The notes: a model not told the origin generated them from the letters alone. A stretch of DNA of 64,000 bases from a bacterium (GCA_963669175.1 OY769902.1:2816001-2880000); one strand, 5' to 3'; counted from the first letter of the stretch, positions 47,948-64,000 are shown. Numbers and translations are program-made.

Positions 47948-48531
47948 AGGCCGCAGCTTCCTCGTGTAAAAGGGTGGACGCCGTCGGGCGTGTTCGGAAC
48001 CCCTAATGTCTGGGGATCTACTCTGGTCTTCGTTTTTAGCCGCTTGTCTGTTGGGGTGACTTTGTACCTAACTGCAAGCTCTAACCTCTTGAAAAGTCAC
48101 CCTACTGGAAATTGGAAAGATCCAAGTTAGTGAACTATTTAACAAAGTGCAACGTGCTCCGAGAACATAATATCACAGGAATTCAGTTTGACTCCAACTG
48201 CCTCCCAAGGAAAAGGAAATGTAAAAACATCATGGTTCATTTTCAGTCAAAAATGATGCTTGCAAGAAGTAAAATTTCCAATAAAAACAGATCTCTTTCA
48301 CTACTGGAAAATGATGTTCTGAATTTGTTGATCGTCAAGGAGGAATCTGTTTGTCCCTGTTCATTGAAATGAGGAAATGCAAAAAAACTGGTCCATATGA
48401 TATTCCCGTGAGAGACAGTCCGATTCAACATGTGATTGATTTGGTTTTGCTCCGTTCCGTTTACCCGTTACCTTCAATTGTCATTCAGGGGAAAATGTGA
48501 AGAAATGCACGACCAGGAGAAGGGGAGGGAG

Positions 48532-49233
48532 ATGAATAGAGCATTGATCGTACTGTGTATGCTGTTGCTGGTGGCTTCAGCGTTTGCTGCAGAGAAGGTG
48601 CCGCTGGAACAACTCAGCACGGATGAACTGGTGGCTGAGACGCAGTTTGAGGCGCTGGAAAAAATTGAGAACGGTATTAACATCTGTTGGTGGTTCCCGT
48701 ACGAATTCTGGAAAGCCATCATGATAAACGATAAGCAGATGACGCAAGCGCAAAAAGACTCCATGCTGGCCATCGTGGAGGATGTCGCATTCCTGGCTGT
48801 GGTGCAGGTCGATGTGTTCCCTACCGGATATTTTGATTATTACCCGAAAGAGACAATTAAAAAGGGGATGACTGTACAGTTTGTTGATCCGGATGGTTCC
48901 GTGTACGCGTTAAGCATCCAGAAGGACATGAATCCCGAACTTCAGTCCATGATGGATATGATTGCCATGATCCTGACCAATGCGATGGGCAACCTCGGGT
49001 CCAACATGCACTTCTTCCTGATCGAAAATGAATATGACGGCAAGCGGATCGTCGATTGTTATGAAGAAGGGGAAATACGCGTCCGGCTGACAAACAGTGA
49101 CGGCGACAGAATAACCACACGTCTGGAACTGCCACTTGATTGCCTGTATGTCCCACGCAAATGCCCGAACGGTAAAGACGCACACGTTTCGTGGAAATTC
49201 TGCCCCTGGACCGGGGAAAAGCTGCCGGATTAG
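48532..49233 (+). CDS. Secreted hypothetical protein with C-terminal Cys motif
   Basis: Signal peptide MNRALIV...SAFA; C-term CPNG...WKFCPWTGEKL. Confidence 0.75.
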   Translation: MNRALIVLCMLLLVASAFAAEKVPLEQLSTDELVAETQFEALEKIENGINICWWFPYEFWKAIMINDKQMTQAQKDSMLAIVEDVAFLAVVQVDVFPTGYFDYYPKETIKKGMTVQFVDPDGSVYALSIQKDMNPELQSMMDMIAMILTNAMGNLGSNMHFFLIENEYDGKRIVDCYEEGEIRVRLTNSDGDRITTRLELPLDCLYVPRKCPNGKDAHVSWKFCPWTGEKLPD

Positions 49234-49292
49234 TATTGTCTCAAGACTGAGACTCTAAAGTAGCTAAAATACTGATTTGGCCCGACTGCTCG

Positions 49293-50183
49293 TCAGTCGG
49301 TTTTTTTATCAACCATTTCAATTGCCAATACATTGGGAATACCCCAGAAGGCATGATTCTGATTGTGCTGGGTGAAATCGGTCTCAAAGCTTCCAACCCA
49401 GTCCCAATACTCACCGTTTGGCAAACGGATACAGACCTGTGCTTCAGGGCCGCCTTCCAAGTGCTGAGCAGCCACTATGCCTAGGGGTAACTCGAGAAGG
49501 ATTGTGTTGAAATCGTGCATGGAATAGGGGGATCGACAGAAAACGAAGAGGATATTTCCGGAATCATCCTGTGCGAGCGAAGCCTCACTCCAGCGTCGAG
49601 GTTGCTGCTTCCAGGCATTTTCCCCAGGCTTTTTTATCAAGCGCAGGTTCTGCAAGATGCCATGATATTGGGCTTGCATGGAATCAAGCGGAATGACGCC
49701 ACGATCAAGAATGTCGAATTCTGGCAATCCCGCACGTTTCGGATTGAAAACAGCAAATGAATGATATGTATTATTGAAAGCCGGGTTGTTGACATGATCC
49801 TGTGAGCTCATATAGCCGGTATGGGTAGTATAATCCTCCTCAAACATACCCGCATTGATAGCAGTAACGGCGCCATAGAACTCACATGCAACATGGGCGT
49901 CCAGGAGGTCAACGCTGTCCAGCGCGGATGCTGCGAGAAGTTTCAACTTGAAATGCTGTGGGGATATGCGCAGAACATAGAGAATAGAATCATCAACCAG
50001 CGAATAGGAATCCAGTTTGAATTGACCAAACTCAAGGCCTTCCTGCAGAGTCACCCACTCGTATTCTCCGGGAACAAGTGGAGGTTGAGAAGCTTCTTTT
50101 GCGCCGGATCGACAGGAGATCGTTATCAGGTAAATAGGAATGAGCATCAGAAAAAGTAACGACAATCTTGCGAACTTGACCAT
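49293..50183 (-). CDS. Phosphodiester glycosidase (NAGPA-like) family lipoprotein
   Basis: Lipobox-like ITISC; AINAGMF; HLEGG; C-term IPNVL. Confidence 0.65.
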   Translation of the reverse strand: MVKFARLSLLFLMLIPIYLITISCRSGAKEASQPPLVPGEYEWVTLQEGLEFGQFKLDSYSLVDDSILYVLRISPQHFKLKLLAASALDSVDLLDAHVACEFYGAVTAINAGMFEEDYTTHTGYMSSQDHVNNPAFNNTYHSFAVFNPKRAGLPEFDILDRGVIPLDSMQAQYHGILQNLRLIKKPGENAWKQQPRRWSEASLAQDDSGNILFVFCRSPYSMHDFNTILLELPLGIVAAQHLEGGPEAQVCIRLPNGEYWDWVGSFETDFTQHNQNHAFWGIPNVLAIEMVDKKTD

Positions 50184-50200
50184 TTCTTTTCCCCCAGTAT

Positions 50201-51298
50201 TTAGAACGCCTCCTTATACCCCACCAGTTCCACATATCCGAAACTGAAGCCGGGAAAATCCTGGCGTTCCACTTTGACCGCGCCTTCCCAGTAGGTGACA
50301 CGGGTGGATCGGGAGGTCCGTAATTCCTGGTTGAGTTGGGTGGGCGTGAGGGTGAGGTCGATACCTTTGGAAGGAACCTGTACACGCCATCCGGAGGGAT
50401 AGGTTGTTTTGCTGTCCGGGCTGGTCCAGGTTCCGGTATTGGTCACAGTGATCCGGTCCAGGGCGAGGTGTTCCGGCGTTCCTGTGGCTGGCATCCATGT
50501 CCCGGCGGACTGAGCGATAGCGTTGCCGTCCCTGTCACGGATCAGGTAAATCATCAGCGCATCACCACCTGGCAAATGCAGGCCGAACCAGTCCCAGCCG
50601 ACCAGTCCTTCACCGAGCTGCTGGTTGCCGAACTCGTGGTCCATCCAGAAGTCACCCGATACGGCTTCCGTTGCCTGGCTGCCGGCAGGTGTGAAATAGC
50701 CGTCCGCTTTCATGTACGGCATGGAATAGTAATACGAGGCTTCGGTCCCGCCCGGTCCTTTTACGCTGTAGCCTTCCTCTCCATTCAACACAGGTGAACG
50801 ATCCCAGGTCAATGCCAGGCGTATCTCACCGAGGATCGGGGAGGAGGCGTGGAGGATATGCTGACCGTTCAGTTCTTCCGCGGACCAGTCATCCAGCCAG
50901 ACGTGGTAGACGCCGCCAACCGCGCCAGCTTCACCCAGGGTGCCCCGAGCGATCTTTTCATCAAATCCAAACGGCATTCCCGGCCCGCTCATGGCTAAAT
51001 GGGCGAAGTAGAGGGAACCGCTCTGTTGTCCGGGGAGTTGGTTACGGAAGAAAGTGAGCTGGAGATGATACCAGTTGTCCGGGTTGGAAGCGTCGGCTCC
51101 AGTCTTGAGCAGATGCCCGGTGTAGTACCACCATTCCAGCGCGTAGTCCGGGTGCGCGGCATGATCGACCGGGAAATTCCAGTTGTAACCGGGCTCAGGC
51201 ACCGCGAACTGGCCTTCCTGGGCAAAGGATGCGGTGCCGCATGTAAGCGCTATCAGCAGTATGAATGAGAACGCCCTAATTTGCCGTATAAACCACAT
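50201..51298 (-). CDS. CrtC/AttH-like lipocalin-fold secreted protein (start uncertain)
   Basis: FPVDHAAHPDYALEWWYYTG, QLTFFR, ASYYYS, WMDHEF, GWDWF, YWEG, GYVELVGY. Confidence 0.88.
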   Translation of the reverse strand: MWFIRQIRAFSFILLIALTCGTASFAQEGQFAVPEPGYNWNFPVDHAAHPDYALEWWYYTGHLLKTGADASNPDNWYHLQLTFFRNQLPGQQSGSLYFAHLAMSGPGMPFGFDEKIARGTLGEAGAVGGVYHVWLDDWSAEELNGQHILHASSPILGEIRLALTWDRSPVLNGEEGYSVKGPGGTEASYYYSMPYMKADGYFTPAGSQATEAVSGDFWMDHEFGNQQLGEGLVGWDWFGLHLPGGDALMIYLIRDRDGNAIAQSAGTWMPATGTPEHLALDRITVTNTGTWTSPDSKTTYPSGWRVQVPSKGIDLTLTPTQLNQELRTSRSTRVTYWEGAVKVERQDFPGFSFGYVELVGYKEAF

Positions 51299-51947
51299 TC
51301 CATGATCCGGGGTATCGTGTGGCGGAATAGCCATGTTTTTCGAGGAATTCTTCCACACCTTCGGTATCGTCTTCAATAATAAAGATCGGTTTGTCCCTTT
51401 TAATCAGGTTCCTCATGCCTTTAAGAATCTGGAGTTCATGGCCTTCGGCATCCATTTTGACCAACTTGATACGATGCGGAAATTTCAAGGCGTCAGTGTT
51501 CAGGGTGAGGACCGAATATTTTCCACCATCCTTTGTGATCTGGGCACGGTAAAAGTCACTCATCCCGGTGTCTTTCGCAGCGGGAACATCCATGCTGGCG
51601 AGGTCTACCTTGTCAGAGGCTGCGACGTTGAACAGGGTGATATTCTTGTAGCGTGCATAGGACGCATTCGCGGTCAACAGTTCAAATGTATCTTGAATGG
51701 GTTCGAAGGAGAAGACACGTCCTTTCAGACCAACCAATGAGGAGCAACGCAGGGTGTAGGTACCCACGTTGGCCCCGATATCCAGCACCCAGTCGCCATG
51801 TTTCACCCAGCGTCCGAGCATCTGAAATTCCTTTTCCTCGGATACAAATTTCCCAGCTCTGATCTTTATCGGGAAATAGATTTTTTTCAACACTTGCTGG
51901 CAGGATGGGGGCAACAGGGCTGCGAGTTTTTTCACTTCCTGTATCAT
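51276..51947 (-). CDS. FkbM family methyltransferase
   Basis: VLDIGANVG, FEP, KMDAEGHE. Confidence 0.9.
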   Translation of the reverse strand: MIQEVKKLAALLPPSCQQVLKKIYFPIKIRAGKFVSEEKEFQMLGRWVKHGDWVLDIGANVGTYTLRCSSLVGLKGRVFSFEPIQDTFELLTANASYARYKNITLFNVAASDKVDLASMDVPAAKDTGMSDFYRAQITKDGGKYSVLTLNTDALKFPHRIKLVKMDAEGHELQILKGMRNLIKRDKPIFIIEDDTEGVEEFLEKHGYSATRYPGSWNVVYTAN

Positions 51948-52071
51948 CAGATCGGTTCCCTGATTTTATGAAAGATGTAAACAACTCATGGTGAATGAAA
52001 ATACATCATTCAAAATGCAGAGGCCATACTTGAGGGGGATTCTTATTTTCAGGGATACTCATTCCGGTCCA

Positions 52072-52550
52072 CTAGCCCGAAGATTTCACCACTGGCAATT
52101 TCAATGTGATACTTGATGGAACGGCCAGTACAAGAACCACGGCAGTGGTTCTCTGTATTAGCCCACCGTCCAGCGCCGTCTGTTTGGCGCTCACGGTGGG
52201 AATAGGATGTACGCTACTTGCCAACCCCGGCAGCGGGTTGCCTGAATATTTCCACTGTATACTTTTGATATTTATCAGGTTACTCCTTCCGGAGTAAATA
52301 TATGGTGCGCATTATCTCCCCGGGTAGCCGCCAAACTGACGGCGGCTGCCCGGGGCTAATACAGGTTGCCCCTGCCGGGGCGGTTGCCGATACTCAGCCT
52401 CATATTGCCAGCGAAACAGGGAATAGACACGCAAAGGGATACCGGAGCAAACTGTCCCCTGAAAAATGCTGTATGAATCAGTTGTAATGTGTTGATATGA
52501 AATGTGTTAAGATGATTATCCATGTTTCGTTCATGAAATATTCGGGCTAG
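52072..52550. mobile_element. Non-autonomous IS derivative (MITE) with 13-bp TIRs and CTAG duplication
   Basis: CTAG|CCCGAAGATTTCA ... TGAAATATTCGGG|CTAG; no transposase ORF. Confidence 0.75.
52133..52385. repeat. Six-hairpin palindromic cassette, copy 1
   Basis: Symmetric hairpins; CTGTATTAGCCC / GGGCTAATACAG inverted pair; loops GTCTGTTT and AAACTGAC. Confidence 0.75.
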
Positions 52551-52647
52551 GTGATCGTCTCGATGAACCAACAATCGCAAGGAATCCAGAGGAGGAGATC
52601 CCGGACAACGCTAAACGACAGCGTTTCCGGGATGACAGAGTGGCAGC

Positions 52648-52734
52648 GAAAAATGAGACTACTACCTTTTCATCTATATCAAATCAGGACTTTGAATGAA
52701 GAGTTTTCGAAAAGGTAGCTGTACCGGATTTTTC
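52648..52734. repeat. REP-like pair (GGGGAC family), degenerate copy 3
   Basis: GAAAAATGAGACTACTACCTTTTC ... GAAAAGGTAGCTGTACCGGATTTTTC, similar to units at 4.75-4.83 kb and 58.28 kb. Confidence 0.6.
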
Positions 52735-52741
52735 GCAGATC

Positions 52742-55303
52742 CTATTCATACTCCATCCTGACCTGCTGAGCGATTTCGACTTTTGAGGCGCGTAAAGCGG
52801 GCATCAGTCCGGCAAACAGGGCGCTGAGAATCATCAGGCCACCCGCCAGCCCGATCTGGCCCCATTGAATTTGCGGACTCAGGGACCAGCCGAAGCTGTA
52901 TTTGTTGATAACATAGATAAGGATAAGGCTGAGAATAATGCCCAGTACAGCGCCCAGCAGCCAGCCTGCCAAGCCCAATAGACCTGATTCCGCGAGGATA
53001 CGTCCGATGAGCTGACGTTGTGAACCGCCAATCGCACGGATGATCGCATGTTCACGGGACTGTTCGGTGACAATCGCCGCCATGCCGCCACTGACCGCGA
53101 GAAGAGCTACAATAATGGCCACCGCTTCCAAAGCGTAGGTAATCGCAAAGGTATGATCAAACACATCCAACACGGCACGGCGTAGCTGAACATTGGTCCG
53201 GACATCCAGATCCAGTTCCGGGGGGAGCAGAGATTCGACCAGCTTTCGACCTTCATCAATGCTCATTTCGTCCGGGATGTAGATCGCAATGGAAACCGGA
53301 CGGTCATCACGCCAGTGTTCCGCAAACCAGGCACGATCTACCAGGATCAACCCGGAGTCGGTTGAGTAATCATAATAGATAGAGGTAACAAACAGGCGTT
53401 GCGGACCGGTTGGCGTCTCAACGGTAATGCTGTCGCCGGGTGAGACGCCCTGATGAAAGGCCATGGTCTCTGAAACAATGCAGGCCGGATCTCCACGTAG
53501 CAGCGACTCGTATGGCGACTGATCAGGAAGCGTCTCAAGGAATTGCAGCCGTTGCTGTTTTGCGACGGAAACCATACGAGTCATGGCCATACGGACATCA
53601 TGATCGTTAGCTTTGAGCTGAACGGTACGAAAACAGTCGATGTCCGCCAGTTGATCGTTGGTCAGCAAATTGTCCAGAACATAGGCCGGTATCAATTCAC
53701 CTTTATTCAGCTCAAAAGAACCGGAACCGGTAACCACAAGGTCTGCGGTGATTGTGTTTTTATACCAGATGTCTACGGTATTTCGGAAGGATTTAACCAT
53801 CATGTCCACGGAAAGCCACATGGCAACCGCGAGCGCCAGCGCTGCGACAGCGGGCGCAGTACGGTGACGTGAACGTACCAGCACTCCCAGCATCATGTTT
53901 ACCTGGGCGCCGAGCTTTGCGATGCCGGTCCAGGAAAGAATCTTGTAGCCAGCTCCCAGCAGCCAGGGAGTCATAAGCGCCGCCCCGAATACAAAGGCCG
54001 CCGCGGCGCCATACCCGGTTATCACCGGGAAAGCAGGGAAGGGGTAACGGGCCAGTATCGTGCCGAGTAGGACAAATCCGATTCCGCCGAGCAGAAGGAT
54101 AACCGGACGCATCCGGTCTTCCAGCACCTGACGTGAGAAGCTGTCGCGTACCGGCACTCGCGCCGCCTCAAAGGCTACCGGGGTAACAGCGGCAATCGCG
54201 ACAACAATCCCAAGCGCGGCGCTGGTAGCGATCTCGCCCCAAGTGACATACCAGCCTTGCGCGCCTTCAAGCAGGTAGAGTGTGCTTACGGTGATTTGAA
54301 CTGCACGAACCGCACCACGGGCGAACAGCAAACCCAACGGTACACCAAACAGTGCGCCGAGTATCCCAAGGGCGATTCCTTCGAGCAAATAGAATTTCAC
54401 AACAAAGCGTCGTCCCGATCCAACAGCTCGCAGAATGCCGGTCAACCTTCGCCTTTGCAAAGCCGCAGCGGTTACAGTCTGGTAGACAAGGAATCCGGCA
54501 ACGAGAAGCGCTACAAATGCCAGCGCTGTCAGGTTCAAGCGAAATGAAGCGAGCATCTTCTCCGCCTGGGGACGCCGCCAGCCGGCGGCTTTTGCTGTGA
54601 TGCCGGGAGGCAGAAAACGATTGACTGCGGCCAGCACGGAATCCTGATTGACACCCTTATTGAAGAGGATATCGATACGGTGTATAGCGCCCCAATCATC
54701 GGTCAGGCGCCATGCGCGGGGCAGATCCATAATGATCAGGTCGGCGATTTGCGCCTTGGATACTGTCTCACCTTCAAGGATGCCCAGAAGTTGAAGCGTA
54801 TCACTCTTTCCACTGTGAAAGAGTGGAAAACGGTCACCAATCGTAACCCCGAGTTCCTCTGCCAGCGAAGGGGACAGTAGAGCTGAATTCGGTGACGTGA
54901 AGATGACAAGCGGTTGGGTTGAATCTGCCAGTTCAGCCTTATACCAGGGACGAAGGTCACTGTCACGGGCCAGGTCTACACCCATCAGCTTGACGATACG
55001 TTCCTGAGCGCCGGCTCGTGCGCGCCTGATATATACCGGTGCGGCAGAATGTATTCCGGGCCAACGTGCCAGCGAGGTATAAAGCTCGGGAGGGATATGT
55101 CCTTCCCCTTCGGCGTAAATCTCCACATCTGTCCGTCCGGCAATCAGCTCCAGACTACGGCCAAAGGCTTCAATAGCGGATGAGTTTGCCACGCGAACAG
55201 CCAGCAGCACCGCAACGCCCAGCGCAACGCCACCGATAGCCAGTAATGTTCTTCCGGGACGAGCCAGCCAGCCTCGTATAAACAGTCGCAGCAGGGGTCT
55301 CAT
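52742..55303 (-). CDS. ABC transporter permease (duplicated MacB/FtsX type, AttF/G-like)
   Basis: RTLLAIGGVALGVAV; two FtsX-type units (GILRAVG, AIIRAIG); YVINKYSFGW. Confidence 0.9.
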   Translation of the reverse strand: MRPLLRLFIRGWLARPGRTLLAIGGVALGVAVLLAVRVANSSAIEAFGRSLELIAGRTDVEIYAEGEGHIPPELYTSLARWPGIHSAAPVYIRRARAGAQERIVKLMGVDLARDSDLRPWYKAELADSTQPLVIFTSPNSALLSPSLAEELGVTIGDRFPLFHSGKSDTLQLLGILEGETVSKAQIADLIIMDLPRAWRLTDDWGAIHRIDILFNKGVNQDSVLAAVNRFLPPGITAKAAGWRRPQAEKMLASFRLNLTALAFVALLVAGFLVYQTVTAAALQRRRLTGILRAVGSGRRFVVKFYLLEGIALGILGALFGVPLGLLFARGAVRAVQITVSTLYLLEGAQGWYVTWGEIATSAALGIVVAIAAVTPVAFEAARVPVRDSFSRQVLEDRMRPVILLLGGIGFVLLGTILARYPFPAFPVITGYGAAAAFVFGAALMTPWLLGAGYKILSWTGIAKLGAQVNMMLGVLVRSRHRTAPAVAALALAVAMWLSVDMMVKSFRNTVDIWYKNTITADLVVTGSGSFELNKGELIPAYVLDNLLTNDQLADIDCFRTVQLKANDHDVRMAMTRMVSVAKQQRLQFLETLPDQSPYESLLRGDPACIVSETMAFHQGVSPGDSITVETPTGPQRLFVTSIYYDYSTDSGLILVDRAWFAEHWRDDRPVSIAIYIPDEMSIDEGRKLVESLLPPELDLDVRTNVQLRRAVLDVFDHTFAITYALEAVAIIVALLAVSGGMAAIVTEQSREHAIIRAIGGSQRQLIGRILAESGLLGLAGWLLGAVLGIILSLILIYVINKYSFGWSLSPQIQWGQIGLAGGLMILSALFAGLMPALRASKVEIAQQVRMEYE

Positions 55304-55998
55304 GAGTGATCCAGTTTCCCGTCACGGAGTTTCAGAACACGGTCGCCGGACTGGAACATCTCACGGTCATGGCTGGCGATCAGCACAGACGCAATGCCTT
55401 CTCCAGCAATGGTTCGGAAAAGTGTCATCACACGATGTGAGGCTGTGCTGTCCAGGTTCCCGGTCGGTTCATCCGCCAGGATCACGGCCGGATCATTGAT
55501 CAACGCACGCGCTATTGCAGTACGCTGTATCTCGCCGCCGGAAAGCTCGTGGGGCCGGTGGCTGACACGATCAAGCAGATCAACACGCTCCAGAAGTGTT
55601 TCTGCCTTGGCCTTCGCTTGTTTGAAAGGAATACCGGCCAGTTCTGCTGGCAGGGATACATTTTCCAGGATCGTCAGGGTTGGAATCAGGTGGAAGAACT
55701 GAAAAACAATGCCTACGGTATGACGTCGATATTCATCAATATCTTTATCTGCGAGATCACTCAACCAGGTATCAGCTACCCTGATCCGCCCCGAATCCGG
55801 ACGGTCTAACGCGCCAAGCAGGTTGATCAGGGTAGACTTGCCACACCCGGAAGGTCCGGTTATAAACGTAATTCCGGAAGGCAACTCCAGCGAGACATGG
55901 TTCAGCGCATAAACAGGCTTGGTCGTGTGACCGTATACACGGCTGACATCCTGCAATTCAATCACGGGTTGTTCAGGTCCTTGGTTCAGTTCTTTCAT
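55300..55998 (-). CDS. ABC transporter ATP-binding protein (LolD/MacB-like)
   Basis: [26 protein letters not shown]. Confidence 0.95.
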
Positions 55999-56091
55999 GC
56001 CCTCAAGATAGAGTCCCAGATTCATTGAGAAAACGGCAATTTTTCAGCCCGCCCCGGGAGGGGTGGAATTTCATGACTCGTTCCGGCGGGA

Positions 56092-56120
56092 TTGCACTTG
56101 AGTGCCAATCATCGTATTCT
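56092..56120 (+). promoter_or_regulatory. Possible sigma70 promoter
   Basis: TTGCAC-N17-TATTCT, 28 nt before ATG 56149. Confidence 0.4.
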
Positions 56121-56148
56121 TTCATTATTAAAAACAGTGGAGGTACTG

Positions 56149-56790
56149 ATGCTCGTCCGGCAGATTCTGACAGGTGGAGATCGTAATTACGCCTATGTCG
56201 TAGCTGATGAAGAATCCAGACTGGCGTTGATTATAGATCCCTCGTATGCCCCTGAACGAGTTTTTGAGTTCATCACAAGAAATAAGTTGAAGGTCTACTA
56301 TGTGCTGAATACTCACCGGCACCATGATCACAGCAATGGCAACGAAACGATGCTTCAGTTGAGTGGGGTTGAAGCGCTGGCCTTTGGCGACGCGGATCCT
56401 CGCACAGACAAGAGAATCGAGCAGGGTGCTGTTTTCCCGATGGGAAGTCTGAACATTCACATCTTGCATACCCCCGGTCATACGGAAGATTCTATTTGCA
56501 TCCTGGTGAACAATGCTGTATTTACCGGCGATACGCTTTTTGTGGGTAAAGTCGGCGGAACCGGGTACGGTGAAGATGCACGGCAGGAATATGATTCGAT
56601 CCACGAGAAACTGATGACCTTGCCGGATGAAACTCGTATATTTCCGGGGCACAATGTCGGTGTACAACCTTCATCGACAGTGGCAAACGAACGTGAGACG
56701 AATCCGTTTCTTCAGCAACCTGATTTTGAGAGCTTTGTCGAATTGAAACGTAATTGGCTGGAGTATAAAAGAAAGCATGGGATCGCGTGA
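56149..56790 (+). CDS. MBL-fold metallohydrolase (glyoxalase II-like)
   Basis: THRHHDH, HTPGHT, FTGDTLF, PGH; RBS GGAGG. Confidence 0.92.
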   Translation: MLVRQILTGGDRNYAYVVADEESRLALIIDPSYAPERVFEFITRNKLKVYYVLNTHRHHDHSNGNETMLQLSGVEALAFGDADPRTDKRIEQGAVFPMGSLNIHILHTPGHTEDSICILVNNAVFTGDTLFVGKVGGTGYGEDARQEYDSIHEKLMTLPDETRIFPGHNVGVQPSSTVANERETNPFLQQPDFESFVELKRNWLEYKRKHGIA

Positions 56791-56843
56791 CCGGTGGACC
56801 GACTCTGAAGTGAATTGATCCATCTGGATAGAAAGGATTTTTC

Positions 56844-57518
56844 ATGAAAAACCTGCGCCAGTTTGTGGTTCTCAGCATCATTATACTTCTTATAGCTACT
56901 GGTTTGACAGCAGGTTATGCAACTCTATTGAAAATGAAGCGGATGGCAGACGCGCGTGGCTTTCAGTTACCCATGCGTAAACTGGTGGCTGAACTCGCCA
57001 ATCCGAAAACTCTGTTCTACGTCAGCAAAGTAATAATTGATGCCGCGCCTACAATCGGTAAACCTGAGGAAGTAACTCTCAGGACCGAGCAGAACGCTAT
57101 CACGATTAACCGTCCGGTTGATGTTGTATTCGACTTCTTTGTTGATCCCCAGAAAATGAAGCTTTGGATTGCGGGGCTGGAGAGCATTGATGAGCTTTCC
57201 CAGGGACCGATGGAAAAGGGAGCAAAATACGTCGCTTTTTATAAATTGATGGGAAGCCGCTTTCAACTGGTAGGCGTCGTTGATGAGTTTGTCCCATTCA
57301 AGAAGATGCGTGTTTTGATGGATCACTCTGATTTCAGCGCGAATATCAGTTTTGAGTTTATTGAACACAACAAGGCAACAACGATTCTACATTCAATGCA
57401 GGCCTCTACAAATTCCGGTACGATGATGATTGCCGCCGGCATGGTTGCATACCAGGCCGACCTCGAGCTGAGTAAAGATTTGGAAAACCTGCAAAAGATT
57501 ATTGAGTCGAGGTATTGA
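56844..57518 (+). CDS. Membrane-anchored SRPBCC/START domain protein
   Basis: N-term TM; ITINRPVDVVFDF...W; C-term DLENLQKIIES. Confidence 0.75.
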   Translation: MKNLRQFVVLSIIILLIATGLTAGYATLLKMKRMADARGFQLPMRKLVAELANPKTLFYVSKVIIDAAPTIGKPEEVTLRTEQNAITINRPVDVVFDFFVDPQKMKLWIAGLESIDELSQGPMEKGAKYVAFYKLMGSRFQLVGVVDEFVPFKKMRVLMDHSDFSANISFEFIEHNKATTILHSMQASTNSGTMMIAAGMVAYQADLELSKDLENLQKIIESRY

Positions 57519-57519
57519 T

Positions 57520-58200
57520 ATGAAGTTGAATCTTGCAGAAGAATTTGTACTGCTTGCCCTGAATGATGAAACAGGAAAATGGGTAGCCGAAGGCACCGCG
57601 TTGCAGCTTGCTATTCCGGGAGCCCTATTGATCGAGCTCTTTCAGCTGAACAAGCTGACAATGGATAATAAAAAAGTCATTGTTTTGGACAGTACTCCCA
57701 CAGGTGATGCTCAGCTTGATGAAGCGCTCAACCTGATCACTTCAGCTAAGAAGACTCGCAAGCCTAACTATTGGGTGCAGAAACTGGCAAGCAAGATGAA
57801 AAAGCTGAAAGAAATCATGGTAAATCGTCTGGTGGAAAAAAATATTGTTAAGGTGGAAGAGGACAAGGTGTTATGGCTGTTCGATGTGAAGCATTACCCT
57901 ACTGAAAATCCGATGCCTGAACTGGAAATCCGCCAGAAGCTGGACAGTATTATCCTTCAGGGAAGCCAACCGGATGATCACATGGCCGCATTGATAAGCC
58001 TTGCGTATACCTGCAACCTGGCAAAAGAATTGTTTGACAAGGAAGTCAGGAAAGAAGCGACAAAAAGAATGAAACAGATTGCAAAAGAGACAAAAGCGGC
58101 AGAACCAGTAGCGCAGGCAATTCAGGAAGTTCAGGCAGCAGTTATCGCTTCGGTTGCGGCCGCGGTTTCTTCAGCCGCCGCTGCATCAGCTTCTTCCTGA
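57520..58200 (+). CDS. GPP34/GOLPH3 family protein
   Basis: LAEEFVLLALNDETG, GALLIEL, PTGDAQLDEAL, Ala-rich C-term. Confidence 0.85.
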   Translation: MKLNLAEEFVLLALNDETGKWVAEGTALQLAIPGALLIELFQLNKLTMDNKKVIVLDSTPTGDAQLDEALNLITSAKKTRKPNYWVQKLASKMKKLKEIMVNRLVEKNIVKVEEDKVLWLFDVKHYPTENPMPELEIRQKLDSIILQGSQPDDHMAALISLAYTCNLAKELFDKEVRKEATKRMKQIAKETKAAEPVAQAIQEVQAAVIASVAAAVSSAAAASASS

Positions 58201-58218
58201 TGCAGATGGTTAATGCTT

Positions 58219-58440
58219 GGAAAAAGGGGACTGCCTCCTTTCCCTGGGGTAAAGCCTTTCCGGCGTGAGCATGGACCGGGAAAGGTGGCTGTACCCTTTT
58301 TCTTGAAAGCAGGCAGGAAGTACACGGAAAAGGGGACAGTTTCCTTTTCCAGAAATACTTCAGGAATATTCCGTATAAGCGCGAGGAAAAGGATCCCGTC
58401 CCCTTTTCCCGGCAATCTCCATTATAACGGAATTAAATCG
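58219..58440. repeat. REP/BIME-like array (GGGGAC family), copy 4
   Basis: Four alternating palindromes between convergent genes; collinear with the reverse complement of 4640-4930. Confidence 0.85.
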
Positions 58441-58483
58441 ATAACAGCTATGTGTATAGGGAGTATACAAGCAAGCCGATCCA

Positions 58484-60103
58484 CTACCCCAGTGAGCCGT
58501 TTTTTTTGTTGTTGAGAATGATATCAAGATCCCTGGGAAGCTGAATCGTAAATGTCGTGCCTTTTCCTTCTTCGCTGGAAACAGTGATTTGTCCGTGATG
58601 ATCCTGCAAAATCCGGTAACAGATCGCCAGTCCCAATCCTGTCCCGACGCCTACACCCTTGGTAGTATACCCCGGATCAAACACCCGGCTAAGCTTATCT
58701 TTCGGAATCCCATGACCGTTATCAGCAATCTGAACCGTTACGTTTTCTTTGTCCTCTCTGGTACGGATTGTAATGATGCCTTTCCCTTCGGGGAATGCCT
58801 GGACTGCATTAACGATGAGGTTCAACCAAACCTGGTTTAACTGAGCCGGAAAACAGGGGACCGGTGAAAGGTCGCCAAATTCTTTTACAACCTTGACCTT
58901 ATCTTTCAACTCATGGTGAATCAGTTGCAGGGTACTCTCGATACCTTCGTGAAGATCCGCGCGTTGCAGTTCAGCCTGATCAAGTCGGGCAAAAGACTTG
59001 AGTTGTTTGACGATGCGAGCTACACGATCACTACCGTCAGCAATGACACGGTTTGCATCATTGATCACCTGCATATTAGCCTGCCATTTATGTTCAGTTT
59101 CAGATTGCAGGTCAGCACAATTGCCGATTTCATTGATGTGTTCAATTGCTGTACGTAATGTCGAATGCATGGAGCGAATTGCCCCCATGGGGGTGTTGAT
59201 TTCATGCGCAACACCTGCGACCAGTTGACCAAGTGAGGCCATCTTTTCTGCCTGTGCCATTCGAGCATGGGCGTCCTGCAACTGCTCGGTTCTCTCTTCT
59301 ACACGTTTTTCCAGTAGCAAATTCATCTCATCAACCCGGGCGAACTGGTATCGTACAATCGCGATGTAGAAGAGCAACACGGCAAGCGGAAAGGCTGTGA
59401 ATGGATAGATCTGAGTGGAAGAATCGAAAATCAAAGGAAGAATTACGAAGAGTAAAGCTGCCGGACCATAAATCAAGCCGAACGCGATGAGATTCAACGC
59501 CAGGAATTCCCTGTATGAACGGCTGTCAGATTTTCGATAGGCATAACTTAAAATATACATGATTTTGGTTATAGCAACGCAGAGAATAAAAAAGCTAAAA
59601 TAGACCAATGGCCCATATTCGATTTTATAAACGTGAGTTGCGTGAGGATTTACCGTAATACCTGAAATAAACCAGTCTGTGCTGAGAAGCAGGGCTAGAA
59701 TGATTGACGCGATGACAATCATGCCAGTAAAATAATAACGTAGCGGAATCCTGACCCCGAACATGGTAAGCAATTCACCACTGACCATTGAAACACCGAT
59801 ATGGCGTCCGAATATGGTGAACTCCTGTTCGTAGCGTGCCAGCATGGCAGAATAATAGACAGCGAAAAGTGCGGATAATAAAGCAAAGAAGGGGGCAAAC
59901 CTGATAACAGTGTTGACGTGATCAATATTTTCAAGTCTTGTTGCAGCAAATACGAATGACGATGCGGTTCCCAGCATGAAACAGAAGATTGAAAACAGCT
60001 TCCACATATGATCGCCCTTACGTGAAAAAAGGGCAACGAGAGCCAGCGAATAAAGGAAGGCGGCGCTGATCAAAGGAGGTATGGAAACCGGTAGTACTGG
60101 CAT
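58484..60103 (-). CDS. Multi-TM sensor histidine kinase
   Basis: About 7 TM helices; AHEINTP, LNQVWLNLIVNA, DNGHGI, GTGLGL. Confidence 0.93.
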   Translation of the reverse strand: MPVLPVSIPPLISAAFLYSLALVALFSRKGDHMWKLFSIFCFMLGTASSFVFAATRLENIDHVNTVIRFAPFFALLSALFAVYYSAMLARYEQEFTIFGRHIGVSMVSGELLTMFGVRIPLRYYFTGMIVIASIILALLLSTDWFISGITVNPHATHVYKIEYGPLVYFSFFILCVAITKIMYILSYAYRKSDSRSYREFLALNLIAFGLIYGPAALLFVILPLIFDSSTQIYPFTAFPLAVLLFYIAIVRYQFARVDEMNLLLEKRVEERTEQLQDAHARMAQAEKMASLGQLVAGVAHEINTPMGAIRSMHSTLRTAIEHINEIGNCADLQSETEHKWQANMQVINDANRVIADGSDRVARIVKQLKSFARLDQAELQRADLHEGIESTLQLIHHELKDKVKVVKEFGDLSPVPCFPAQLNQVWLNLIVNAVQAFPEGKGIITIRTREDKENVTVQIADNGHGIPKDKLSRVFDPGYTTKGVGVGTGLGLAICYRILQDHHGQITVSSEEGKGTTFTIQLPRDLDIILNNKKNGSLG

Positions 60104-60171
60104 CTTGTATTTTCACTTGGAAAGTTAGACAGTATCATTTAAGATACGAAAAATTCCCGGTGAAATGCTGC

Positions 60172-61617
60172 TCATGCGACTCGGTTGAAAGATGCGCCGC
60201 TTCGAGGGGGAAACTCGGCCAGTTTTTTCGTGGAAGGACGAGAAGAAGAGGTGGAATTGCTGTTGCGTCTATACGATTCAGCGGCTCGTTTTAATGGACC
60301 GTTTTCATCAAGTATCATTCCTGATTGCTGCATGGAATTTGCCTGGATGACGCCGTTACCCATTGCAGCCTGCCCAACGGAGCCGCCGTTCTGATTGCCT
60401 GACATGATCCCGTTTTGATTGCCCTGATCATCAGATGTTGCATGATTTTCATTCTCGCCAAAAGCATCAGCAGCCGGTGATTGCCTGTTATAGGATTCGA
60501 TGGGCGAGAACGGAGATGTGTCGTCCTGAACCCCCATGGCCGATGTGGGCTGCTCCGATGTGTCGCCTGGTTGAGGCTGCGAAGGCGCGGGATCTGTTAT
60601 CGCAAATGGATTGACATCAACTGGTGCGACTGCCGGATAGGTTGATTCTTCAGGTTGTTCTTCGGATTCTGACGGTGAAGTGATTCCATTCCGTGATGTA
60701 TCTTCTTCCGGTTCAGTCTTTTTAACTGCCGGATCTGCCTGTTCTGTCTGATCTGCGCCTGTTTGGCTTGTTTCTTCGGATTCCGTTGCTTGAGAAGCGC
60801 GTTCATCATTGATTTCTTTCTGGGCCTCGGTGGCGACCTGGCGGGCTTCGGCAGCAACTTTACGATCCTGCGCCGATGGTTCAGCGGGGGCAAGAGCCGC
60901 ACGTTCCGCCTGCTGGGCGTTTCGCATGCGTTCTTCCGGTTCATCGCCACCGCCGACACTAATACTGACATGGCCGCCTGTCGCGTACTGACGTCCGTCC
61001 GGACCCTTTTCATAATCATACTGTGCGCCGCCACTGGCTAGATGTCCGGCTGCGGCCAGGTGAGCCTGTTCATGCTGACGAACTTCCGTGTCACGCTTTT
61101 TCAGTTCCTCGACTTCTTTTGCTTCGTCCTTGGATAATTCCTGGCTGGTGGCTGGTGTTTTTGATGATCCCGATTTTTCCTCATCATCGCTTGAGGTTGT
61201 TTTATCTGTCTTCTCGTCTGACGTATTGTCTATTGGAGAAAGACTGACATCCGGTTCAGAGGATTGAGAATAGGAGTCGCTGATGGATGTCAACCCCGGT
61301 TGTGCTTCAGCCTGGTCGTCCTGTTGAGTCTGTTCAGGTTGGCTAATCAGGCTTGCAGCATCATCTTTCTCTTCGTCGTCGTTTTGTTGGTTGTTCAGTG
61401 CGCTTTGATACCGTTCATAGGCGCTGGAAGAGATGGAAGCGCTGTCCTGATAGCCGCAGCAATAGGGGGGATGCCCGCCACACTTGGGGCAAACTTCTTC
61501 ATCGTCGGGTATGGTCGAGATGGCGCGGTTCAGGAGCGGAGAAAGCCCAGCCTGGAATCCGGCGCTCCGGACTCCGGCGGACATACGTCCTGAAATAATC
61601 ATGGATTCGCTTGCCAT
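60172..61617 (-). CDS. SprA-related family protein (largely disordered)
   Basis: LKKRDTEVRQHEQAH, GPDGRQYATGGHVSI, ALAPAEPSAQDRKVAA. Confidence 0.85.
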   Translation of the reverse strand: MASESMIISGRMSAGVRSAGFQAGLSPLLNRAISTIPDDEEVCPKCGGHPPYCCGYQDSASISSSAYERYQSALNNQQNDDEEKDDAASLISQPEQTQQDDQAEAQPGLTSISDSYSQSSEPDVSLSPIDNTSDEKTDKTTSSDDEEKSGSSKTPATSQELSKDEAKEVEELKKRDTEVRQHEQAHLAAAGHLASGGAQYDYEKGPDGRQYATGGHVSISVGGGDEPEERMRNAQQAERAALAPAEPSAQDRKVAAEARQVATEAQKEINDERASQATESEETSQTGADQTEQADPAVKKTEPEEDTSRNGITSPSESEEQPEESTYPAVAPVDVNPFAITDPAPSQPQPGDTSEQPTSAMGVQDDTSPFSPIESYNRQSPAADAFGENENHATSDDQGNQNGIMSGNQNGGSVGQAAMGNGVIQANSMQQSGMILDENGPLKRAAESYRRNSNSTSSSRPSTKKLAEFPPRSGASFNRVA

Positions 61618-61685
61618 CGTTCGCTCCGTTGACTTGTACCTCAAGCCACAACAACGAAACAGGTCGATGGTCACCCTCAATTATC

Positions 61686-61713
61686 CTATCGGCAAGATTA
61701 TCCATAAGCTTTA
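61686..61713 (-). promoter_or_regulatory. Putative sigma28 promoter
   Basis: Minus strand TAAA-N16-GCCGATAG, about 70 nt before ATG 61617. Confidence 0.7.
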
Positions 61714-61997
61714 CTATTTTATCGCATAGTGTGTTCTGCTATTTCCTCCGAAGTTGGTGCAGATGGTATTGTGTCTAGCGCAATTAGTGCAGTTGGTATC
61801 GTGTCTAACGTAATCTGAGGATGATTAGCCTGCTTTAGCAGGCTCCTCTTAGCACCCGGCTTTAGCCGGGTGGGTGATTCTATCCAAATGGAAGAGCGCG
61901 CTTCAGCGTGCTTTCACTTGTGATCCAAGTATGATTCTGGAAAGCACCCTGAAGGGCGCTTGGTAATGATTTGTTAGCTGTTCCCCCGGCTGAAGCC

Positions 61998-62393
61998 CTG
62001 TCTCTTGCTCACATCTTCGTGTTTCTGCCACCCCAGAGGGGGTGGTATATTTTAGCGTAGGGTAGACGCTGTCTGTTTAGCGTCTACCCTACGAAAAAGA
62101 TCAAACCTTATCTCAACCCTGGAAGGGTTGCATAACGTATAATTTACACCCAATTGATTTATAAAGGATATAAATTACGTTATTACCTGTAATAATTGAA
62201 TAAACTAATATTGACTGCTCATTATGCAACCCTTCCAGGGTTGATTGTTCGTTAGAAATCCTGACATAGTGTACAGGCCAAACAGACGGCCTGTACACTA
62301 TGCTAAAATAGGGAATCCCGCCGGGATTCTAAAAATGCGATGTCCACAATCCTTTTGCTGATAAAGCTTTCAGAGGATGTGGGTAAGAGACAG
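61998..62393. mobile_element. IS4/IS50-like MITE with 10-bp target-site duplication
   Basis: TIRs CTGTCTCTTGCTCACATCTTC / GAGGATGTGGGTAAGAGACAG (18/21); GGCTGAAGCC at both 61988-61997 and 62394-62403. Confidence 0.88.
62028..62329. repeat. Six-hairpin palindromic cassette, copy 2
   Basis: Perfect 15-bp stems at 62056-62093 and 62265-62302 with loops GTCTGTTT / AAACAGAC; 23-nt inverted pair 62113-62135 / 62222-62244. Confidence 0.85.
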
Positions 62394-62617
62394 GGCTGAA
62401 GCCGGGGGCTAAGAGGAGCAGGCTAAAGCCTGCTAAGAGAGTATGGTCTATTAAAACGCATTGACTCGACAGTTACGCCAATAAGGAGTGCCTACCGAGG
62501 TAAATCCAGTTGCCCATTCGAAATTGCGTGGACTTCAGAGAACTACTCAATATGTTGGTATTTTTTATTCTGTCATGTATGTTCGAGCATCGTTAGAATA
62601 CTACAAAAGGAGGAGCG

Positions 62618-63787
62618 ATGAGTCGCCCGCATACATACAAGGATAACAGCTTTAAACCAACATTATTCAACCAGATAGAAGAAGCAATCAAGGCCAGTAG
62701 TGACCCGGATGCGTTGATTGCTCTTCATGTCGGTGATACCTGGTTTGACCTTCCGAAAGAATTGAATCAGCCGTTGGAGTCGGAGCCCTGGAACGAACGT
62801 CTGTCCCGTTATGGCGCTACACAGGGGGAGATCGAACTCAGAAATCGGCTCTTTCAAAAGCTGACCACGAAAAATCAACTTCCGCTTTCCGGGCCACAGG
62901 AAGTTCAGCTTGTGTTCGGAGCGACCGGCGGTCTTTTCCTTACCATGAGCAAGCTGATGAATCCCGGCGATGAAATCCTGACCCTGGCGCCTTATTGGGC
63001 AATCCTCCGTGTGGTTGCATCGACTGCCGGGGTGAAACTGGTGGAAGTGCCGACTTTTGATCGTCTGCCTGATCCTTCAGATACACAGGCGATGGCGGAG
63101 ATGCTGGATACTTACCGAACCGATAAAACAGTAGCAGTATACTTCAACAGCCCGAATAATCCTTCCGGGGTACAGTTGAAACGTGGGCATCTGGAATCCA
63201 TCGCGGAATATGCTCAAAAGCATGATCTGTGGGTATTGTCCGATGAAGCCTACGAAGATTTCGTCTGGTCAGATGATCCCCATATTTCAATAGGTACGCT
63301 GGACGGCATGTATGAACGTACTGTTTCCATCTTTACCATGTCCAAATCGTATGCCGGAGCGGGATTACGGCTGGGTTGTGTCGCTGCGCCACAGGGGGTG
63401 ATTGCTGCGCTGAATCCATCTCATGTGGGGGTGGGGTATGAGCCGAACCGTCTGGCGCAGGTTCAGTGGATTCGTGGCCTGGAACGTAGCGAGGTGATTA
63501 TCAACAGCTTGAAGATCGCCTATCATGAAGGTTTGAGAGCTGTGGAAGAGAACTGCACGGTTCCTTACCTGGCGCCGGAAGGTTCCTTCTATGTATTCCT
63601 GGACTTGCGTGATCGATGGCAGGGATTGAGCGGTGACGAGAAACTAAAACGTATGCTCGATGCCGGTGTGGTGCTGTCCACAGGGGAAGCGTTCGGGAAT
63701 GATTACAACGGTTGGGCTCGCTTCTGCTACACCGCCGAACCGCCGGAACGTATCGCTGAAGCCGCACGAAGAGTTGCGAATTTGTAA
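62618..63787 (+). CDS. PLP-dependent aminotransferase class I/II
   Basis: NSPNNPSG, SDEAYE, SKSYAGAGLRLG; RBS AGGAGG. Confidence 0.92.
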   Translation: MSRPHTYKDNSFKPTLFNQIEEAIKASSDPDALIALHVGDTWFDLPKELNQPLESEPWNERLSRYGATQGEIELRNRLFQKLTTKNQLPLSGPQEVQLVFGATGGLFLTMSKLMNPGDEILTLAPYWAILRVVASTAGVKLVEVPTFDRLPDPSDTQAMAEMLDTYRTDKTVAVYFNSPNNPSGVQLKRGHLESIAEYAQKHDLWVLSDEAYEDFVWSDDPHISIGTLDGMYERTVSIFTMSKSYAGAGLRLGCVAAPQGVIAALNPSHVGVGYEPNRLAQVQWIRGLERSEVIINSLKIAYHEGLRAVEENCTVPYLAPEGSFYVFLDLRDRWQGLSGDEKLKRMLDAGVVLSTGEAFGNDYNGWARFCYTAEPPERIAEAARRVANL

Positions 63788-64000
63788 ACCGTAGCCCGGC
63801 CATGCCTGGCCGGGATCCGGCTTAGGGATGCATCATTGGCCTCCGTTCAGGGGGCTTTTCTGTTTTCTTTGAGCCACTTGCATTAGCATGATCAACAGAA
63901 TGCGGTTATTTTACTGATCGCAAAGCAGTTCGCATTTTCAGAAAAGTGATGCAGCAATAGGGAAACTCTCATGGATAGCACGACCATCAAACGTATCGGG

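Follow-up and report, generated by a model that had tools for sequence, protein, structure and literature searches.

The 64,000-nt stretch of bacterial DNA analysed here (the window; G000:C1:2816001-2880000, from a host genome of 5.447 Mb in one contig with 50% G+C) carries three hairpin cassettes, A, B and C. These cassettes are very probably non-autonomous inverted doublets of the ends of Y1 HUH genes, similar to REPINs (doublets of repetitive extragenic palindromes, REPs), of which A and B have been multiplied as passengers of miniature inverted-repeat transposable elements (MITEs). In each cassette, a unit of ~92-120 nt occurs twice in inverted orientation; the unit is composed of a small hairpin, a main hairpin with T(T/G)AG at its foot, a spacer and a second small hairpin. 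Units of the same kinds flank Y1 HUH genes elsewhere in the genome in inverted orientation, and the cassettes can therefore be read as inverted doublets of those gene ends, the arrangement of a REPIN or REPtron. By sequence, family A corresponds to the ends of the gene RAYT-A (RAYT, REP-associated tyrosine transposase), family B to a unit that precedes a paralogous gene at 2.672 Mb, and family C to the ends of the RAYT-C genes. What sets the system apart is that its unit is tripartite and bears a non-canonical tag, that its proteins are of a subclass described without REPs, and that doublets have been amplified as the cargo of two orphan MITEs.

The cassettes lie at 52133-52385 (A), 62028-62329 (B) and 61825-62436 (C), where an earlier note made from the sequence alone had placed them, and both the sequence and its folding as single-stranded DNA (ssDNA) bear out the order of parts described there: hp1 as the first small hairpin, a larger hairpin with TTAG directly at its foot, a ~20-nt spacer, a second small hairpin (hp2), a centre, and the mirror image closing with CTAA and a small hairpin. 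Against dinucleotide shuffles, A folds with a z-score of -7.9, B with one of -15.3 and the left part of C with one of -7.1, and no shuffle matches the fold of any of them. The 8-nt loop GTCTGTTT is indeed kept in A and B, with the complements AAACTGAC and AAACAGAC in their respective right halves; in B, the two main stems have unrelated arm sequences while the right loop remains complementary to the left. The claim that a single architecture occurs three times stands for the layout and for the TTAG at the foot, but C is a separate sequence family that lacks the GTCTGTTT loop. Its terminal 43-nt arms are 86% complementary, and the MITE that carries B sits inside one of its hairpins.

The hairpins are maintained by paired changes. 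A profile made from the four window units retrieves 237 units from the genome, which form 45 clusters at 88% identity and include a third subtype, D (hp1 CAACTCCGAAGGAGTTG, foot motif GTGAGC, loop GTCTGTTT as in A and B), found as free doublets. From an alignment of 30 diverse units (A1), RNAalifold recovers both the main hairpin and hp2, and 13 of the 18 pairs that it predicts are compensated. Counted on a three-helix structure that we specified ourselves, 90.6% of the cells in the 30 units are paired, versus 74.7% in shuffles (none of 500 as high) and 25-44% in slid controls. Changes on both sides are found at 19 of the 26 pairs, which extends to many units the earlier observation that the stems differ yet stay paired. 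Cell by cell, 122 are changed on both sides and 8 on one side, with few G-U intermediates, and this rarity of one-sided changes fits a requirement for pairing on both DNA strands rather than in RNA. The foot motif is T-[T/G]-A-G (TTAG or TGAG), its A and G and the first C of the stem being invariant in the 30 units; the near-invariant unpaired positions are this A and G and most of the loop, and a mid-stem irregularity is kept in most units. From these alignments, the unit structure appears to be under selection. The available text of PMC8266576 names the tetranucleotide, the bulge and the loop as determinants in recognition by TnpA-REP, and IS200/IS605 TnpA reads features of similar kinds.

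The association with Y1 genes identifies a likely partner. A Pfam Y1_Tnp (PF01797) scan of the genome finds 10 loci, none duplicated. Partial matches to cassette A start exactly at hp1 (52133) and end past hp2, so the single ~110-nt unit also exists alone, and one lone A-type unit lies directly upstream of a 151-aa open reading frame with an HxH motif. RAYT-A is bracketed by A-type units in inverted orientation and both RAYT-C genes by C-type units, the latter of the same type as the left unit of the window cassette and with identical spacing at the two genes (a 460-nt gap). All four unit-flanked proteins pass the Pfam Y1_Tnp cut-off and the NCBIfam IS200 transposase model (56.1-70.4 bits against a cut-off of 55), and their closest solved relative is ISDra2 TnpA (2xm3, E 1e-6). 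They have HxH, WQ and Y..NQ..HH motifs in common; the HuH motif is preceded by D only in RAYT-A and by N or T in the other three. The relevant Y1 proteins are 21-46% identical to RAYT-A, each gene is single-copy, and no TnpB-type gene was found in the genome.

Other genomes repeat this arrangement, from a congener through further families of the phylum to distant phyla. The covariance model R1, which is tuned to the genus of the host genome, matches exactly the four window units in the window and, among 40 relatives, which are not independent, it matches 7 genomes: the congener G001 with 86 units, G003 with 42, G028 with 27 and four with 1-6. A RAYT-A-like protein is encoded in 13 of the 40 relatives, comprising 6 of the 7 genomes matched by the model and 7 of the 33 unmatched ones. 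Units flank Y1 genes on the plus strand upstream and on the minus strand downstream at loci L162 of G001, L170 of G003, and L165 and L173 of G036. At a further G003 locus (L164), the downstream unit fits this orientation, and the upstream match (944-1045) lies ~450 nt from the gene on the minus strand. A more distant sample, the best 80 RAYT-A homologue loci from named genomes, comes mostly from Bacteroidota, plus Planctomycetota and a Parachlamydiaceae metagenome-assembled genome. Y...Q..HH is present at 79 of these loci, WQ and HuH at all 80. The model matches 13 of the 80 at E<=0.01; 12 of these matches adjoin the gene in the expected orientation and 4 loci are flanked on both sides. In alignments of the distant loci the layout is unchanged, hp1 being followed by a TAGCC-footed hairpin and then hp2, although the main stem is shorter. 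Inverted flank similarity exceeds the best of 20 shuffles by more than 10 at 35 of the 78 evaluable homologue loci. Two points of the earlier note thereby gain support: its guess at a structure-defined ssDNA element recognised by a RAYT/TnpA-type HUH enzyme, and its proposal of a covariance-model scan, which does find many more copies in this genome and in its relatives.

A and B reside in two unrelated shells without transposase genes, as the earlier note had recognised, with different ends and different duplications. Coverage by genome-wide BLAST matches shows that the repeated unit around A exceeds A itself, spanning 52072-52550. This shell, MITE1, has 46 full genome copies with 86-100% identity and common inverted ends CCCGAATATTTCA...TGAAATATTCGGG. 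Its 4-bp YTAN duplication varies among copies (CTAG, CTAA, CTAT, TTAG, TTAA), and the two sides agree in most of the 46. Inverted ends together with a 4-bp duplication indicate a cut-and-paste DDE-type MITE, which we take to be IS5-like from the YTAR target of IS5. The shell of B, MITE2, has 42 full copies with 92-100% identity, a 10-bp duplication that matches at 9 or more of 10 positions in 35 of the 42, and the symmetric target consensus GGCTWWAGCC; its end CTGTCTCTT... resembles the outer end of Tn5/IS50. Both MITE targets are similar in kind to those of known elements, YTAR for IS5 and the symmetric hot spot GCTNAGC for Tn10.

Neither shell has a visible autonomous partner. No element of insertion sequence (IS) length with the ends of MITE1 around a transposase occurs in this genome, and the IS-length pairs of MITE1 ends proved to be chance pairings around ordinary genes. 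A screen of PF01609-type transposases only gave four DDE_Tnp_1 IS types in the genome, and their ends are like those of neither MITE. MITE2-type ends in the genome all pair at ~400 nt with one exception that holds another IS: the 1.7-kb element at genome 4494613-4496312, considered as the parent IS, is actually a MITE2 copy that has been invaded by a different IS of the IS4 family. That IS (~1.3 kb, ends CAGAACTGTCCGGTT, 413-aa transposase) is found at genome 4494613-4496312 and 2421005-2421631; one of its copies has entered the hp2' hairpin of a MITE2 cargo, where it is bounded by the 9-bp duplication CCTTCCAGG, and this adds a fourth level of nesting. The exact MITE2 end has no match in metagenome contigs; of 78 further genomes from the phylum, 7 contain the MITE2 end, often at contig ends, and no transposase is found at two of these loci that were read.

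The junction between cassette and shell is identical in all copies of each MITE. Identical junctions point to one capture per MITE family followed by amplification, which explains the enrichment of units in shells. As such, the sequences indicate that one A doublet and one B doublet became cargo of DDE-type MITEs and were multiplied ~45-fold each as passengers. Targeting runs the other way, from MITE to REPIN, and the cassettes do not target MITEs. MITE2 lies in C-unit hairpins in 22 of its 42 copies, 19 at model positions 35-44 and 3 in the outer hairpin. The duplicated loops differ among MITE2 sites (GGCTGAAGCC, GGCTTTAGCC, GGCTAAAGCC, GGCTTCAGCC), and identity among the C copies that host them is only 73-83%, versus 92-97% among the MITE2 copies themselves, which points to independent insertions. 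B is nested inside C because MITE2 prefers GGCTWWAGCC, a sequence contained in the hairpins of family C. MITE1 has likewise landed on YTAR sites inside units, with one copy in the TTAG of a left B-unit loop, one at the CTAA in the right-hand unit that flanks RAYT-A, and two in the loop of another small hairpin repeat.

Other hairpin repeats lie near or serve as sites for these MITEs. Several MITE2 insertions outside family C occupy the loop of a further repeat, a GC-rich hairpin (...CCCGGGGTTTACACC.. / ..CCGCGCTATTCAAG), and MITE2 may have a general preference for hairpin loops that read GNTNNANC. At window 52584-52636 there is a small hairpin repeat (ATCCCGGACAACGCTAAACGACAGCGTTTCCGGGAT) with ~15 copies, two others of which have MITE1 in the loop CTAA.

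The genome-wide census separates passengers from free units. A profile built from A1 finds 246 non-overlapping units of types A, B and D: 107 in MITE1 or its variants, 90 in MITE2 and 49 outside. Enrichment in IS shells, as the earlier note had suggested, is therefore real (197 of 246, ~80%, within two MITE families), but it reflects carriage from a single junction per family and not targeting of MITEs. The A and B doublets each have about 45 copies inside MITEs. The 49 outside units form 8 free doublets together with 33 singles, and two units among these singles flank Y1 genes. At the free doublets, which sit at unrelated loci, unique flanks start right at hp1 with no visible duplication, and the two arms are of different subtypes. 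Family C numbers 103 units, in 45 doublets, 2 RAYT-containing doublets and 9 singles, and amounts to ~0.2% of the genome by arithmetic from the unit counts. The gap within its doublets is ~22-31 nt, mostly 23-28, and MITE2 interrupts 18 of the 45 doublets; no C doublet is carried as MITE cargo. The MITE copies are young, with about 92-100% identity, whereas the free units and the C copies are far more diverged. Comparison of both window loci with G001 in search of empty sites finds flanking genes that are 70-77% identical and intergenic regions that do not align.

Table 1 Coordinates of the cassettes, their units and shells in the window, and of related loci in the genome
Feature	Position	Strand	Details
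Doublet A (A_L + A_R), REPIN-like	52133..52385	.	putative cognate of the RAYT-A gene, genome 5013848-5014192
Unit A_L	52129..52251	+	model R1, 85.8 bits
Unit A_R, partner of A_L	52269..52388	-	model R1, 94.7 bits
A, hp1	52133-52152		arms AGAACCAC/GTGGTTCT
A, TTAG	52158-52161
A, left main hairpin	52162-52200		loop GTCTGTTT at 52178-52185
A, hp2; hp2'	52222-52240; 52280-52297
A, right main hairpin	52318-52355		15-bp stem, one mismatch, loop AAACTGAC
A, CTAA; hp1'	52356-52359; 52368-52381
Unit B_L	62023..62141	+	model R1, 105.2 bits
Unit B_R	62216..62335	-	model R1, 104 bits
B, hp1; TTAG	62028-62045; 62052-62055
B, left main stem	62056-62070 with 62079-62093		perfect 15 bp, loop GTCTGTTT
B, hp2; hp2'	62114-62130; 62227-62243
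B, right main stem	62265-62279 with 62288-62302		perfect 15 bp, loop AAACAGAC
B, CTAA; hp1'	62303-62306; 62313-62329
Unit C_L	61824..61914	+	TTAG, GCCTGC-TTTA-GCAGGC hairpin, TTAG, hairpin CACCCGGC..GCCGGGTG, spacer, hairpin AGAGCGCGC-TTCA-GCGTGCTTTC
Unit C_R, inner piece	61941..61997	-	model positions 35-92; severed by MITE2 insertion
Unit C_R, outer piece	62394..62436	-	model positions 2-44
MITE1, IS5-like shell of A	52076..52546	+	471 nt, inverted ends CCCGAAGATTTCA/TGAAATATTCGGG, no transposase gene
MITE1 target duplication	52072..52075 (left); 52547..52550 (right)		CTAG
MITE2, IS4-like shell of B	61998..62393	+	396 nt, ends CTGTCTCTTGCTCACATC/GATGTGGGTAAGAGACAG (CTGTCTCTTGCTCACATCTTC/GAGGATGTGGGTAAGAGACAG), no transposase gene
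MITE2 target duplication	61988..61997 (left); 62394-62403 (right)		10 bp, GGCTGAAGCC; left copy in loop and stem of the C_R hairpin
RAYT-A	genome 5013848-5014192 (5.014 Mb)	minus	151-aa protein, genome 5013755-5014207; A-type unit upstream, reverse-complement A-type unit downstream
B-type paralogue	genome 2672127-2672465 (2.672 Mb)		B-type unit upstream only
RAYT-C genes	genome 5361261-5361596 (5.361 Mb); 1503099-1503437 (1.503 Mb)		C-type units on both sides
MITE2 copies with GC-rich non-C hairpin flanks	genome 566156, 1247988, 3457030, 3541805, 4639432, 1983091
Tandem arrays adjoining RAYT loci	genome 5360617-5361057, 5361775-5361956, 1502365-1502499, 1503595-1503841, 2671418-2671963

Further repeats accompany the units and the Y1 genes. 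Two D-type units at genome 3836652-3837363 face each other as inverted partners normally do, but 488 nt lie between them, roughly as much as in an element that contains a RAYT, and this pair could be a decayed RAYT of the D family. At window 52646-52736 lies a long REPIN-like hairpin (GAAAAATGAGACT..CCTTTTC / GAAAAGG..GGATTTTTC) with more than 50 diverged genome copies, two of which flank a different Y1 gene, at genome 3618452-3618787, whose 241-aa product has a Y..NNP motif of class-2 type; the two together would be a fourth RAYT/REPIN pair of the genome. Tandem arrays with periods of 16-51 nt abut three of the four RAYT loci, and one with a period in this range, at window 61757-61814, abuts the outer end of the C-type unit. 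Arrays of period 15-60 occur within 60 nt of 31 of 124 C-unit pieces, versus 87 of 5000 random sites and 11 of 246 A/B/D units.

A mechanism for the movement of the units can be proposed by analogy with IS608, ISDra2 and E. coli TnpA-REP. The Y1 enzyme would bind the main hairpin folded on ssDNA and would read the T(T/G)AG at its foot, the conserved loop (GTCTGTTT in this genus) and the mid-stem irregularity, while the sequence of the stem could drift freely as long as pairing is kept. Cutting and rejoining near the unit would then allow the doublet to move without a target duplication.

Several observations weigh against this reading of the cassettes and its proposed mechanism. Movement of the units by the Y1 proteins is itself an inference from analogy. 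The B-type paralogue has no unit downstream in a covariance-model search of its locus, and no model match adjoins the other six Y1 loci of the genome, which leaves the free D-type doublets without a cognate RAYT. The NCBIfam RAYT model NF047646 scores three of the four proteins at 17.7-35.9 bits against a cut-off of 80 and gives no match to the B-type paralogue, and the tag at the hairpin foot is T(T/G)AG where REPtrons canonically have 5' GT[AG]G. Seven relatives encode the protein and give no model match, which could reflect the narrow training set of the model. Among the distant loci, direct-repeat flank similarity is also present at 29 of 78, so flank similarity is not purely inverted; tandem arrays or palindromic doublets are the probable source of the direct similarity. 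The three unit loci of G001 that were aligned sit in a short (~240-nt) IS5-like MITE with the same end CCCGGATATTTCAC and a single unit. Since these G001 units ride a MITE, the abundance of units in the genus may owe little to the Y1 enzyme. The RAYT-A orthologue of G001 has units with no such MITE end beside it, and the shared unit and MITE end mean that their link is older than the two species or was exchanged between them.

These points bear on an alternative that we consider unlikely, though by no means negligible, in which the Y1 proteins are relics or domesticated and no longer move units, all recent spread is due to DDE transposases acting on MITE1 and MITE2, and the free units are kept for host uses such as terminators, mRNA stability or protein binding sites, as proposed for classical REPs. 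The predominance of MITE passengers, which are also the young copies, fits this alternative, as do the divergence of the free units into 45 clusters, the riding of a MITE by the G001 units inspected, and the single copy of every Y1 gene, a state that the available text of Bertels et al. 2017 (PMC5581495) takes as a sign of domestication. It has more difficulty with the 45 family C doublets, none of them MITE cargo, and the two intact RAYT-C genes with complete ends, and with the 8 free A/B/D doublets, which are scattered over unrelated loci and show no duplications; conservation of the loop and tag, next to stems that covary freely, argues for continued recognition by a protein. Very little favours an undescribed class of structure-defined mobile element that targets the interiors of MITEs or IS ends, the kind of system proposed in the earlier note. 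The 80% of units in two MITE families would suit such a class, but the identical junctions indicate one capture per family, free doublets and RAYT-flanking units lie outside any shell, and both the architecture and the association with Y1 genes are those of the known REP/REPIN-RAYT (REPtron) kind, so that the proposal is highly improbable and the claim of novelty falls. Least probable of all is that the units are structured RNA genes or regulatory RNA motifs with an incidental transposase association: strong predicted folds and covariation would be expected of an RNA, but an Rfam scan of 48000-64000 returns nothing at gathering score (best 28.2 bits against a threshold of 88), the units occur on both strands as inverted pairs, one-sided changes of the G-U type are as scarce as described above, and units flank Y1 genes symmetrically in many genomes.

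With the cassettes read as REPIN-like doublets of Y1 gene ends, a broader proposal can be made, which we offer tentatively and stop a little short of favouring. The Y...Q..HH clade, which is spread over Bacteroidota, Planctomycetota, Chlamydiota and this phylum, may be a third, ancient REPtron lineage with a tripartite end, whose REPINs escape their own enzyme as cargo of DDE MITEs and in which one MITE homes into the hairpins of a sister REPIN, producing three-layer nesting.

The proteins themselves are best compared with TnpA-Y1 subclass 1.2, characterised by Quentin et al. 2018 (PMC6006769) by Y...Q..HH, WQ, a length of about 148 aa and low copy number, and listed in the available text of that survey without REPs or terminal secondary structures. 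All four proteins have WQ and Y...Q..HH, are about 150 aa long, and occur in low copy with low identity between copies, the assignment to subclass 1.2 being by motifs and not by the authors' own hidden Markov model. In contrast to that partly available description, their genes end in inverted tripartite hairpin units that are conserved, and copies of these units are dispersed through the genome. According to the same text, the survey sought GT[AG]G-tagged hairpins, a tag that the units here lack. A literature search, with most subscription journals outside its reach, found no later paper describing repeats for subclass 1.2. The widely distributed small HUH tyrosine "transposases" of this subclass thus gain a candidate DNA substrate where the only survey found to name them lists, in its available text, none. 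The IS200 "Group 3" of Bertels et al. 2017 (PMC5581495), described in the available part as having no duplicates and abundant flanking 16-mers, may be the same clade.

Similarly to the REPIN-RAYT or REPtron systems, such as E. coli TnpA-REP with its REPs and bacterial interspersed mosaic elements (BIMEs) and the REPINs of Pseudomonas, a single-copy Y1 HUH gene lies between hairpin repeats in inverted orientation, copies of these repeats are scattered over the genome, most of them paired as inverted doublets, and a tetranucleotide at the hairpin foot is combined with a mid-stem irregularity. The differing arms of the free doublets recall the Y and Z REPs of E. coli BIMEs, as given in the available text of PMC6006769. 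A classical REP, however, is one 20-40-nt hairpin, whereas the unit here is tripartite and ~92-120 nt long with two small hairpins around the main one, and the proteins have Y..NQ..HH in place of the Y...NP motif of class-2 TnpA-REP. Most copies here, moreover, were amplified as MITE cargo. The copy number of a REPIN family need therefore not report RAYT activity, as ~80% of the A/B/D units were copied as MITE passengers, and such passenger copying matters for population-genetic models in which REPINs are replicated only by their RAYT.

With IS200/IS605 elements and their PATE (palindrome-associated transposable element) derivatives, including IS608 and ISDra2, the system shares the Y1 HUH fold, a pass of the IS200 model, ISDra2 TnpA as best PDB match, subterminal hairpins preceded by a tetranucleotide, and the lack of target duplication at free doublets. 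In contrast, the ends here are inverted copies of each other rather than same-strand left and right ends, and the genes are single-copy with 21-46% identity, not multi-copy near-identical ISs, and have no TnpB that could be found. The shells resemble IS5- and IS4-family MITEs in their terminal inverted repeats and 4-bp YTAN (MITE1) or 10-bp (MITE2) duplications, and differ from them in an interior that is a complete REPIN-like doublet and in that neither this genome nor the relatives' loci examined yielded an autonomous element whose ends match. The homing of an IS4-like MITE into REP hairpins is documented here at the level of sequence specificity, and it is closest to that of ISPpu9 in Pseudomonas putida, in the available text of PMC8450116 a DDE-type element that prefers REP hairpins as MITE2 prefers those of family C. 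Relative to ISPpu9 as described there, the invader here is non-autonomous, a MITE with a different REPIN family as its own cargo, giving three levels of nesting.

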